Below, one piece after another: positions 33,998-34,394 of a stretch of 64,000 nucleotides of DNA; the stretch's first letter is position 1, and each line of letters opens with the position of its first letter. The stretch lies in assembly GCA_964588165.1 (NCBI GenBank), contig CAZPMS010000006.1:3425-67424 (forward strand), given 5' to 3'. This DNA comes from an uncultured Gammaproteobacteria bacterium (GTDB lineage Bacteria; Patescibacteriota; Patescibacteriia; UBA1558; UBA10009). A program made the position numbers and the translations under genes. The notes beneath the pieces were generated by a model, which did not search any database, was not told the origin of the DNA, and was given only the letters and a program-made list of their open reading frames with translations.

Positions 33998-34085
33998 TGG
34001 AGCCGTTGTGCGGACTCGAACCACAAACCCCTTCCTTACCCCCGCAAGATTTCGTTTCACTCAATCTGCGGGGCAAGCATGGAAG
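33998..34085 (-). pseudogene. partial tRNA-Thr(GGT)-like 3' half with a 39-nt hairpin in the anticodon loop
   Basis: CTTCCATG[cttgccccgcagattgagtgaaacgaaatcttgcggggg]TAAGGAAGGGGTTTGTGGTTCGAGTCCGCACAACGGCTCCA; 3' acceptor strand CAACGGC complements the GCCGTTG of the 5' fragments. Confidence 0.6.
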
Positions 34086-34103
34086 TATATCCTGCCAATA
34101 GCC

Positions 34104-34179
34104 TGGAGCCGAAACGGGGATTCGAACCCCGGACCCCTTCCTTACCATGGAAGTGCTCTACCAACTGAGCTATCTCGGC
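34104..34179 (-). tRNA. tRNA-Thr (anticodon GGT), flanked by 11-13 bp inverted repeats
   Basis: GCCGAGATAGCTCAGTTGGTAGAGCACTTCCATGGTAAGGAAGGGGTCCGGGGTTCGAATCCCCGTTTCGGCTCCA; flanks cctgCCAATAGCC (34091..34103) and GGCTATTGGca (34184..34194). Confidence 0.85.
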
Positions 34180-34202
34180 GCCTGGCTATTGGCAAAAAAT
34201 AA

Positions 34203-34273
34203 AAGTGCTCCCTGCCCCGCTTACTCCGAACAAAAGTAGGAGTTATGCGGGGTACCAACTGAGCTACAACGGC
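34203..34273 (-). pseudogene. partial tRNA-Thr(GGT)-like 5' fragment with a D-loop hairpin
   Basis: GCCGTTGTAGCTCAGTTGGTA[ccccgcataactcctacttttgttcggagtaagcggggcagg]GAGCACTT. It stops in the anticodon stem, where the 3' fragment at 33998..34085 begins (CTT overlap). Confidence 0.6.
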
Positions 34274-34318
34274 AATAATGTTTTTTTAAAAAAACATATT
34301 CTTATGGCATAACTTCTT

Positions 34319-34371
34319 TCTACCCCAGCCAAAGGCTGGTCCGCCTCTGACGGAAACTGAGCTATGTCGGC
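34319..34371 (-). pseudogene. third truncated tRNA 5' fragment with a D-loop hairpin
   Basis: GCCGACATAGCTCAGTT[tccgtcagaggcggaccagcctttggctgg]GGTAGA. Confidence 0.45.
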
Positions 34372-34394
34372 ACGTTAGGCATTACTTTATTTAA

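Follow-up and report, generated by a model that had tools for sequence, protein, structure and literature searches.

In the 64,000-nucleotide (nt) stretch of contig CAZPMS010000006.1 analysed here (the window), a tRNA-Thr(GGT) gene is split into two halves, and a second, intact tRNA-Thr(GGT) gene lies between them, flanked by inverted repeats. Comparison with related loci shows a resident tRNA-Thr(GGT) gene interrupted by a cassette that holds a complete gene of the same anticodon and belongs to a conserved, patchily distributed family. We consider it probable that the locus records the replacement of a tRNA gene by a small selfish cassette, itself likely non-autonomous, and that the split halves are pseudogenes. 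From the same comparisons we infer that the cassette is or was mobile and non-autonomous, that the outer halves are dead, and that a GIY-YIG nuclease had a role in the insertion.

On the minus strand, from 34400 to 33980, the order is a truncated fragment, the 5′ half of the resident gene, a left repeat, the intact tRNA-Thr(GGT), a right repeat and the 3′ half (Table 1), and each part lies where an earlier note, made from the letters of the window, had placed it. The intact gene (the cargo) scores 67.6 bits against the Rfam tRNA family RF00005, well over the threshold of 29, and is presumably functional. ARAGORN called no tRNA from the outer halves when their inserts were left in. Joined without the two hairpins that they carry and without the 3-nt CTT overlap, the halves give a 76-nt tRNA-Thr(GGT) with a full cloverleaf, in agreement with the note's claim that the two fragments form one tRNA. 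Being callable only after three inserts are cut out, and orthologous to intact genes in relatives, they qualify as tRNA pseudogenes. The whole insert between the halves measures 117 nt; the cassette takes up about 114 nt and contains no open reading frame (ORF). The insertion site in the window is the region of the D stem and anticodon stem, positions 26–30.

Some details of that first description had to be corrected. The inverted repeats around the cargo are present, but they are longer than stated and form a 17-bp imperfect helix (ATTTTTTGCCAATAGCC / GGCTATTGGCAGGATAT). The hairpin described as a 43-nt insert in the D loop of the 5′ half is indeed there, but it is 42 nt long and lies at 21/22, the border of the D loop and D stem; a near-identical hairpin occupies the same site in psi-Thr(TGT), a partial copy of another tRNA-Thr in the same cluster. 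The hairpin of the 3′ half, given as 39 nt and as lying one nucleotide upstream of the canonical 37/38 intron site, is 38 nt long and splits the anticodon itself (33/34 or 34/35), and the intron-site analogy does not apply.

Repeated tRNA fragments can confuse short-read assemblers, and the earlier note had named a mis-assembly of two tRNA-Thr loci as a way in which its reading could fail. We give such an artefact next to no credence. The 2451 nt from 32000 to 34450 are 100% identical in five metagenome contigs from separate assemblies of different samples, one of which is possibly the window's own source, and mis-assembly of the region is very unlikely because five separately assembled contigs agree over that span. 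Independent assemblies of other species show analogous structures too (L018, L135, L140 and others; related loci are designated by L numbers).

Homologues of the neighbouring TPR protein place the host among the Patescibacteria, close to Komeilibacteria. Contigs with TPR homologues keep the gene order TIM-(FBA)-TPR-[Thr, Tyr, Thr]-rpmG-ORF-Trp, and in L007, L009, L010, L011, L013 and L014 an uninterrupted Thr(GGT) gene of the GCCGTTG..CAACGGC type, for which the earlier note had proposed to look in relatives, stands directly after the TPR gene. L030 also has an intact GCCGTTG-type Thr(GGT) gene, further from the TPR gene and behind a GIY-YIG ORF. L010 and L011 are clean, with neither a nuclease gene nor tRNA fragments, and L011 is the closest relative found (69% TPR identity). 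In the alignment, the joined split gene best matches L010 (69/76) and L011 (67/76) and has the acceptor stem and T arm common to resident genes; the T arm of the 3′ half, TGTGG TTCGAGT CCGCA, resembles TGCGG TTCGAGT CCGCA of L010. The acceptor stem (GCCGAGA/TTTCGGC) and T arm of the cargo differ from those of the resident genes. Because its acceptor stem and T arm are common to the syntenic intact genes, the alignment identifies the split gene as orthologous to the resident gene and the intact inner gene as the newcomer. These orthologues, together with homologous cassettes in other tRNA-Thr genes, bear out the proposal that an ancestral tRNA-Thr was split by a replacement cassette bounded by inverted repeats.

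The split gene is a mosaic, with a central part (27–47) of cargo type and ends (1–7 and 48–76) of resident type. Positions 27, 28, 42, 43 and 44 carry the bases of the cargo (CTTCC/GGAAG and a GGGGT variable region), where the resident genes of all relatives have ACTCC/GGAGT and AGGTC. The cargo-type centre points to gene conversion along with the insertion. This pattern is consistent with co-conversion in a repair-mediated insertion, although it is no proof, since later conversion between neighbouring copies would give the same picture. As a separate observation, psi-Thr(TGT) is a chimera: its acceptor strand, GCCGTTG, is that of the Thr(GGT) lineage, and its D loop and anticodon arm are those of Thr(TGT). 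The GCCGAGA strand of the intact Thr(GGT) cargo is otherwise found in Thr(TGT) genes; these reciprocal-looking Thr chimeras suggest recombination between two Thr loci.

The cassette has homologues elsewhere. A Parcubacteria genome (L018) has the same layout as the window, with homologous linkers. When metagenome contigs were scanned for GGCTCCAGGCNATNGGCAGG, which joins the tRNA-Thr 3′ end to the right linker, 115 matches were obtained, of which 80 were listed and their flanks inspected; about two thirds of these 80 are chance matches in high-GC coding sequence, and matches were used only where a tRNA ends at the match. Among the matches listed, at least 22 are distinct cassettes of the form CCTGCCCGCCAGTCGCC-GGGC-[tRNA-Thr]-GGCGATCGGCAGGCGGG, lying between 5′ and 3′ parts of a tRNA-Thr. 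Their cargo anticodons are CGT, TGT or GGT, and they are inserted with exact junctions after positions 21–23 (D arm) or at 34/35–35/36 (anticodon loop). Wherever the interrupted gene still has a readable anticodon (for example in L130, L140, L147, L148 and L176), it agrees with that of the cargo.

The arms (21 + 17 nt) are conserved across the cassettes, at least 22 in number, from contigs of 32–51% GC, with three anticodons and at least three sites. In the family layout, pairing 17-nt arms enclose the tRNA, with a 4-nt spacer RGGC before it and the right arm directly after CCA; the left arm reads CCTGCCCGCC(AGTC)GCC plus GGGC or AGGC. The window copy conforms to this layout and, like other members with readable flanks, lies in a Thr gene of the same anticodon with both halves alongside. 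Its right arm matches the family sequence GGCGATCGGCAGGCGGG at 11 of the first 13 positions and differs in the distal 4 nt, and 16 of the 17 pairs of its arm helix form, with two wobbles. Across the family the arm helix is 87% paired, compared with 26–53% when the partner columns are slid, and five arm pairs have changed on both sides, four of them due to the window copy. Covariation in the alignment shows the arm helix to be under selection. The cassette RNA folds as a clamp helix plus a cloverleaf (z −5.8).

The cassette has a patchy distribution. The four closest relatives (60–69% TPR identity) lack it, and it is present in L168 (55%), L018 (56%), and L135 and L181 (34%), a presence/absence polymorphism at a fixed site among related genomes. 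The cargo nearest to that of the window is in L140 (68/76 identical), where the cassette splits a GCCGTTG-type gene in a syntenic cluster. When the flanking motifs of all tRNAs in the GIY-YIG loci, the synteny loci and the window were compared, the arms were found only at the window and L018, so the cassette is no general feature of GIY-YIG loci. A scan of viral contigs with the left arm gave no sign of the cassette; all six of its matches are chance matches in high-GC ORFs.

Two GIY-YIG ORFs of the tRNA cluster lie 220 and 1620 nt from the cassette. Homologous loci were located with a four-sequence alignment of Tyr- and Thr-linked nucleases, a six-sequence alignment being too divergent for the purpose. 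With one genome per GTDB species, we found 80 such loci in Patescibacteria, Bacteroidota, Acidobacteriota, Ignavibacteriota and other phyla. A tRNA on the same strand lies within about 550 nt of the GIY-YIG ORF in 71 of the 80, mostly within 60 nt, and partial copies of the adjoining tRNA occur near the ORF in 58, often along with hairpins that have the end motif of the cassette. The nuclease genes are small (75–95 aa) and of UPF0213 type. In the two commonest arrangements, psi-5′(1..22-41)-ORF-intact tRNA and intact tRNA-ORF-psi-3′(about 40-76), the partial copy is on the far side of the ORF. Tandem arrays of at least three partial tRNA copies beside a GIY-YIG ORF were also seen (L092, 255–1700; L079, 1724–2500; L042, 2038–2320); in Bacteroidota and Acidobacteriota their period is about 350 nt or 120–130 nt, which suggests repeated insertion or unequal crossing-over.

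The hairpins link these loci to the cassette by their ends, CCTGCC/GGCAGG(CGGG), which are also the ends of the cassette arms. CCTGCC..GGCAGG hairpins are 17 times denser at less than 400 nt from GIY-YIG ORFs than elsewhere in the loci. The left junction in L044 (Melioribacteraceae) and L085 (Chitinophagaceae), tRNA(1-21)|CCTGCCTGCCGGCAGGCAGG|GAGCAx followed by 10–25 nt and ATG, has the layout of the 5′ half in the window, with positions 1–21 and a hairpin ending in GGCAGG, and L070 carries CCTGCC..GGCAGGCGGG in an anticodon loop. Thirty-two of 36 hairpin inserts, a few of which are probably false pairings, fall within loops or on a border of loop and stem (binomial p about 1e-5 against an expectation of 55%, which is our own estimate), and 16 of the 36 are in or at the edge of the anticodon loop. 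The GC-rich hairpins that the earlier note saw in the remains of the split gene are present but, with a terminal motif common to the cassette arms, they are no unrelated debris. That they were acquired after the split holds for one case in the cluster, the D-loop hairpin of psi-Tyr (a partial tRNA-Tyr copy), which is demonstrably late because L007, L014 and L018 lack it; otherwise the order is unsettled, as the type of the 38-nt hairpin (CTTGCCCCG..CGGGG, with CTTGCCCCG at its start) occurs at the same site in the split genes of the much more distant L135 and L103.

No NCBIfam family scored above its cut-off for the GIY-YIG proteins, which showed only a faint likeness to group I intron endonucleases; the sole sequence match in the PDB was 1ZG2, a UPF0213 protein. 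No element with both cassette arms around a GIY-YIG ORF was found in these loci.

It could be argued that no mobile unit exists at all, and that local tandem duplication (through slippage or unequal recombination) and decay, shuffling of the copies by recombination of repeats, and unrelated, lineage-specific GC-rich hairpins resembling miniature inverted-repeat transposable elements (MITEs) that landed at random in the dead copies produced the locus. The cluster is full of partial tandem copies, arrays in L018, L025 and L092 look like unequal crossing-over, the 5′ and 3′ fragments of L018 and L140 are not halves of one gene, and the window has GC-rich hairpins in its plain intergenic DNA too (25193, 48913–49003). 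We nevertheless regard this explanation as unlikely. It does not fit arm sequences conserved in at least 22 cassettes at several sites and with three anticodons, an arm pairing maintained by compensatory change, or a cassette that is missing in the closest relatives and present in more distant ones. Nor does it fit hairpins that carry the arm motif, are enriched 17-fold by GIY-YIG ORFs in several phyla, and are strongly biased to tRNA loops.

Under replacement by a cassette, GIY-YIG nucleases of the same tRNA cluster would make a break in a tRNA gene, and repair would copy in either the cassette or a nuclease gene with a copy of a tRNA. Neighbouring sequence would be co-converted, which would explain the cargo-type positions 27–47. 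The insertion would kill the resident gene yet supply a working copy with the same anticodon, so that the cell would survive and the cassette would be hard to lose. The dead halves would also have received GC-rich hairpin inserts of the same family; such solo hairpins would be lethal in a single-copy tRNA gene and would for that reason persist in dead copies only. Both they and the ORF-less cassette would be non-autonomous derivatives. The arm helix may be a recognition structure for mobilisation, or a clamp that assists folding or processing of the cargo tRNA amid look-alike half-tRNAs.

Several observations weigh against this reading. The site in the window is unlike the usual sites (it lies at 26–30, with a CTT overlap and extra AT-rich bases, TT and A), and the outer arm sequence has diverged; because of this atypical site and diverged arm, the window copy has likely been secondarily rearranged. 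In L018 and L140 the 3′ fragment beside the cassette matches the cargo and not the 5′ fragment, so gene conversion or nested insertions blur a history of one insertion, and no unique stepwise history from L018-, L135- or L140-like arrangements to that of the window could be traced. That the target is always tRNA-Thr is no result, being an ascertainment limit of a scan pattern built on GGCTCCA, with which Thr-type tRNAs end. The cassette itself has no coding content, and of 20 cassette loci only 8 have a GIY-YIG gene at a distance of up to about 3 kb. A nuclease that recognises tRNA gene sequence should cut the intact copy too. Finally, the whole 276-nt region folds as a nested cloverleaf (z −6.3), which would allow an RNA-level role of the outer gene.

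That fold also speaks for a functional reading, in which the outer gene is a nested, split tRNA whose hairpins and inner tRNA are removed like introns and whose halves are ligated, so that two tRNA-Thr(GGT) species are made. The inserts lie mostly in loops and thus preserve all stems of the outer cloverleaf, and the flanking halves in L130, L148 and L154 have no hairpins. We find this improbable, and distinctly more so than tandem duplication. The presence of an intact gene of the same anticodon makes the outer gene dispensable; partial copies in relatives are cut off at varied points (1–13, 1–23, 1–45, 28–76); the 38-nt insert splits the anticodon itself; and the outer T stem carries a C-to-T change. 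If RNase P and RNase Z released the inner tRNA, there would be no known bacterial pathway to join the ends left behind, and the outer copies are called as tRNA only after manual removal of the inserts. An Rfam scan of the whole 64-kb window at gathering thresholds returned five tRNAs only, with no intron, ribozyme or other family over the fragments. A group I intron was ruled out, the inserts being 19–55-nt hairpins or a tRNA.

tRNA genes are classic integration sites, and integration leaves partial tRNA duplications behind. The locus might on this account be the scar of an integrase-type island or prophage, since deleted, that left att-like partial tRNA copies. tRNA fragments of the integration type have been discussed in archaea (PMC9897764). 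To this explanation we assign only a very slim chance. The insert is just 117 nt and holds a whole tRNA, no mere 3′ segment; 5′ as well as 3′ fragments occur; the flanking arms are a conserved family of their own; and Pfam detected no integrase or recombinase domain in the eight ORFs flanking the cluster (30130–36988), nor was any called in the related loci.

Tentatively, and with rather less confidence than for the window itself, we propose a cross-phylum class of tRNA-gene-specific mobile elements, in which minimal UPF0213-type GIY-YIG nucleases would mobilise passengers and act as a natural 'cleave-and-rescue' drive on essential RNA genes. The nucleases, of about 80 aa and without a DNA-binding domain, might have as their substrates the hairpins or cloverleaf-like structures that tRNA genes extrude. 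Their passengers, marked by CCTGCC/GGCAGG, would be of three kinds: the nuclease gene together with part of a tRNA, hairpins on their own, and cassettes without an ORF that hold only a whole substitute for the tRNA gene which they disrupt. There is a substantial chance that the finding marks such a broader class. We found no published description of GIY-YIG/tRNA/hairpin elements or of bacterial tRNA-carrying cassettes, in a search whose coverage of subscription journals was thin and which leaves novelty unproven.

The cassette shares features with several known systems. Paquin et al. reportedly described, in 1994, a mobile endonuclease ORF in the mitochondrial atp6 of Allomyces that brings a foreign atp6 end. 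As in free-standing homing endonucleases, a selfish element settles in an essential gene, supplies a substitute for what it displaces and turns the displaced part into a pseudogene, with apparent co-conversion of neighbouring sequence, probable involvement of a GIY-YIG nuclease, and patchy occurrence among relatives; phage T4 SegB, in a tRNA gene cluster, is an example of such an enzyme (PMC2330249). In contrast to these, the cassette has no ORF and carries the whole target gene, a conserved hairpin sits in the junction, and chromosomal tRNA genes of many different identities serve as targets, in several bacterial phyla. The associated nucleases are of about 80 aa, with the catalytic domain only and no recognisable DNA-binding domain.

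Integrative elements that target tRNA genes likewise keep a functional tRNA and leave a partial copy behind. They differ in having an integrase and a size of 10–100 kb, compared with about 0.1 kb here, and in the present case the whole tRNA or its 5′ part is replaced as well as the 3′ part, at sites in the D arm or anticodon. MITEs, REP/RAYT and IS200/IS605 elements resemble the cassette in being small and non-coding, with hairpin-forming terminal inverted repeats (here the 17-bp imperfect repeat), many copies, and probable mobilisation in trans. Unlike them, the cassette carries a functional gene of the target's kind, its canonical members have no target-site duplication at their junctions (L130, L147 and L176; the window has a 3-nt CTT repeat), its arm pairing is kept by covariation and not by strict sequence conservation, and the candidate enzyme is a GIY-YIG nuclease and no DDE or HUH transposase.

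The double-hairpin elements of Allomyces mitochondria (Paquin, Laforest and Lang 2000, cited in PMC2800124) are, as far as the citing account goes, also short GC-rich single or double hairpins dispersed in an AT-rich genome without flanking duplications, and they sit in dispensable parts of RNA genes and in spacers, alongside mobile endonuclease ORFs. The hairpins described here differ in their bacterial chromosomal host, their strong preference for tRNA loops and a motif common to a tRNA cassette, and there is no sequence kinship. Archaeal split, permuted and multi-intron tRNAs, and the group I introns reported at position 35/36 in tRNAs of Patescibacteria (bioRxiv 10.1101/2025.07.03.662931), are alike in that a tRNA is interrupted in the D arm or anticodon loop, with 35/36 as a hot spot. 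Here, however, no intron RNA family was detected in the window, the interrupted copy is redundant and decaying, and the interrupting sequence is a tRNA gene or a 20–55-nt hairpin. What sets the present case apart from all of these is an ORF-less, stem-bounded cassette that carries a full replacement of its own target, and the association of nuclease, hairpin and partial tRNA over several phyla.

If this reading is true, a selfish element would have a new route to fixation, in which its own copy takes the place of an essential single-copy tRNA gene and the host comes to depend on the invader. tRNA sequences would then be exchangeable horizontally between lineages; the cargo here differs in type from the resident. 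Where genomes of the candidate phyla radiation have a single gene for each tRNA, such elements could be a force behind the turnover of tRNA sequences and their co-evolution with aminoacyl-tRNA synthetases. The model would explain the many small ORFs annotated as 'GIY-YIG nuclease family' that adjoin tRNA genes in Bacteroidota, Patescibacteria and other phyla, the frequent partial tRNA matches near those ORFs, and the short contigs that break at such clusters. It also offers a concrete hypothesis for the uncharacterised minimal nucleases of the UPF0213/YhbQ-like type, namely cleavage at defined tRNA-gene positions or at CCTGCC/GGCAGG hairpins.

Table 1. Features of the nested tRNA-Thr locus and of the surrounding tRNA cluster, in window coordinates; numbered positions in the last column are tRNA positions. 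MFE, minimum free energy.
Feature	Coordinates	Strand	Description or evidence
Cargo, intact tRNA-Thr(GGT)	34179→34104	−	GCCGAGA..TTTCGGC type; ARAGORN; Rfam RF00005
5′ half of resident tRNA-Thr(GGT), GCCGTTG type	34273→34203	−	positions 1–21, 42-nt insert, positions 22–29; GCCGTTGTAGCTCAGTTGGTA, 42-nt hairpin, GAGCACTT
42-nt GC-rich hairpin at 21/22	34211..34252	−	GGCAGG at its end; MFE −19.3 kcal/mol, z −4.1
3′ half of resident tRNA-Thr(GGT)	34085→33998	−	positions 27–34, 38-nt insert, positions 35–76, CAACGGCTCCA at end; CTTCCATG, 38-nt hairpin, GTAAGGAAG...CAACGGCTCCA
38-nt hairpin within anticodon (33/34 or 34/35)	34040..34077	−	MFE −17.0 kcal/mol, z −4.2
Cassette left end	34180..34202	−	TT, 17-nt left arm ATTTTTTGCCAATAGCC, 4-nt spacer AGGC; family left-arm homology; pairs with right arm
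Cassette right arm plus one A	34086..34103	−	GGCTATTGGCAGGATAT; family right-arm homology
psi-Thr-a	34371→34319	−	GCCGACA-type tRNA-Thr positions 1–17, 30-nt double hairpin (TCCGTCAGAGGCGGA CCAGCCTTTGGCTGG), positions 18–23
psi-Tyr	33995→33897	−	tRNA-Tyr positions 1–23, 19-nt hairpin, positions 21–35, 36-nt double hairpin at 34/35, then TAAATC (positions 35–40)
GIY-YIG ORF, 93 aa from ATG	33601..33882	−	Pfam PF01541, E 7.6e-12; between psi-Tyr and tRNA-Tyr
tRNA-Tyr(GTA), intact	33554..33638	−	ARAGORN, Rfam
psi-Thr(TGT)	33415→33309	−	positions 1–20 (GCCGTTG acceptor strand), 43-nt hairpin, positions 21–34, 19-nt hairpin, positions 35–45
tRNA-Thr(TGT), intact, GCCGAGA type	33212..33286	−	ARAGORN, Rfam
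Second GIY-YIG ORF, 74 aa	32259..32483	−	PF01541, E 7.8e-13; end 35 nt upstream of tRNA-Trp
tRNA-Trp(CCA), intact	32149..32223	−	ARAGORN, Rfam
psi-Trp 3′ fragment, start about position 28	32129→32035	−	perfect 24-nt palindrome in anticodon loop, TCCA duplicated

The nested tRNA-Thr is one part of a larger, cluster-wide pattern. Partial tRNA copies were located by BLAST of the window's five tRNAs against the window and by inspection of the sequence, and each tRNA of the cluster (Thr(GGT), Tyr, Thr(TGT) and Trp) has a hairpin-bearing partial copy beside it. psi-Thr-a is homologous, hairpins included, to L014 1586–1638, which lies directly upstream of an 81-aa GIY-YIG ORF, and between psi-Thr-a and the 5′ half there may be a remnant of a GIY-YIG ORF (ATGTTTTTT), tentatively so because the alignment is weak. 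Positions 1–35 of psi-Tyr are 100% identical to the tRNA-Tyr, its single hairpin lying in the D loop, and the unit of psi-Tyr, double hairpin, GIY-YIG ORF and intact tRNA-Tyr is also found in L007, L014, L018 and L025. Besides its palindrome, psi-Trp shows an internal deletion, and its T loop contains a 28-nt hairpin.

The Tyr-linked GIY-YIG ORF has no stop codon of its own. At 33601–33640 (minus strand), and likewise in L007 (3460–3500), it runs through the first 35 nt of the tRNA-Tyr and terminates in the anticodon loop at a TAA made of the anticodon GTA plus A37; in L014, L018 and L025 the ORF ends just before the tRNA. A third GIY-YIG ORF (83 aa, 43955–44203, minus strand) lies between two class-II aminoacyl-tRNA synthetase genes with no tRNA alongside and is accompanied by an 80-aa ORF whose function is unassigned; in L009 the two synthetase genes are 3 nt apart. 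Its flanks (43520–44330) contain a repeated motif, CTCGGAATG(G/A)CGTAG, and short hairpins.

Further repeats were seen in the window and in one relative. Upstream of tRNA-Asn (48812–48886), the minus strand at 48887–49010 carries GCCGGGTAGTT and then a double hairpin (TCCGCCAAGGGCGGA CCCGCCTTTGGCGGG CAG); it resembles positions 4–12 of tRNA-Asn plus the double hairpin of psi-Thr-a and may be another hairpin-bearing tRNA fragment. An intergenic double hairpin at 25193–25232 (minus strand; GAGCCGTAGGCTC A CCAGCCTTTGGCTGG) has a second hairpin identical to that of psi-Thr-a at 34325–34339, so the hairpin family occurs away from tRNA genes too. Between tRNA-Tyr and psi-Thr(TGT) (33416–33553, minus strand), a long imperfect inverted repeat (CTCGACTTCGTATCTCACTTTGTTCGA ... 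TCGAACGAAGTTGAGAGGCATCG, with GAAGTCGAG) encloses an AT-rich core with a direct repeat, ATGAGATATAT, and could be another small element. In L007 (2921–3135) psi-Tyr is broken 5 nt from its start by about 210 nt of inserted sequence with a GGGTC duplication on its flanks; a 55-nt segment of this insert is repeated at 3590–3645, and it looks like another small repeat family of tRNA spacers.

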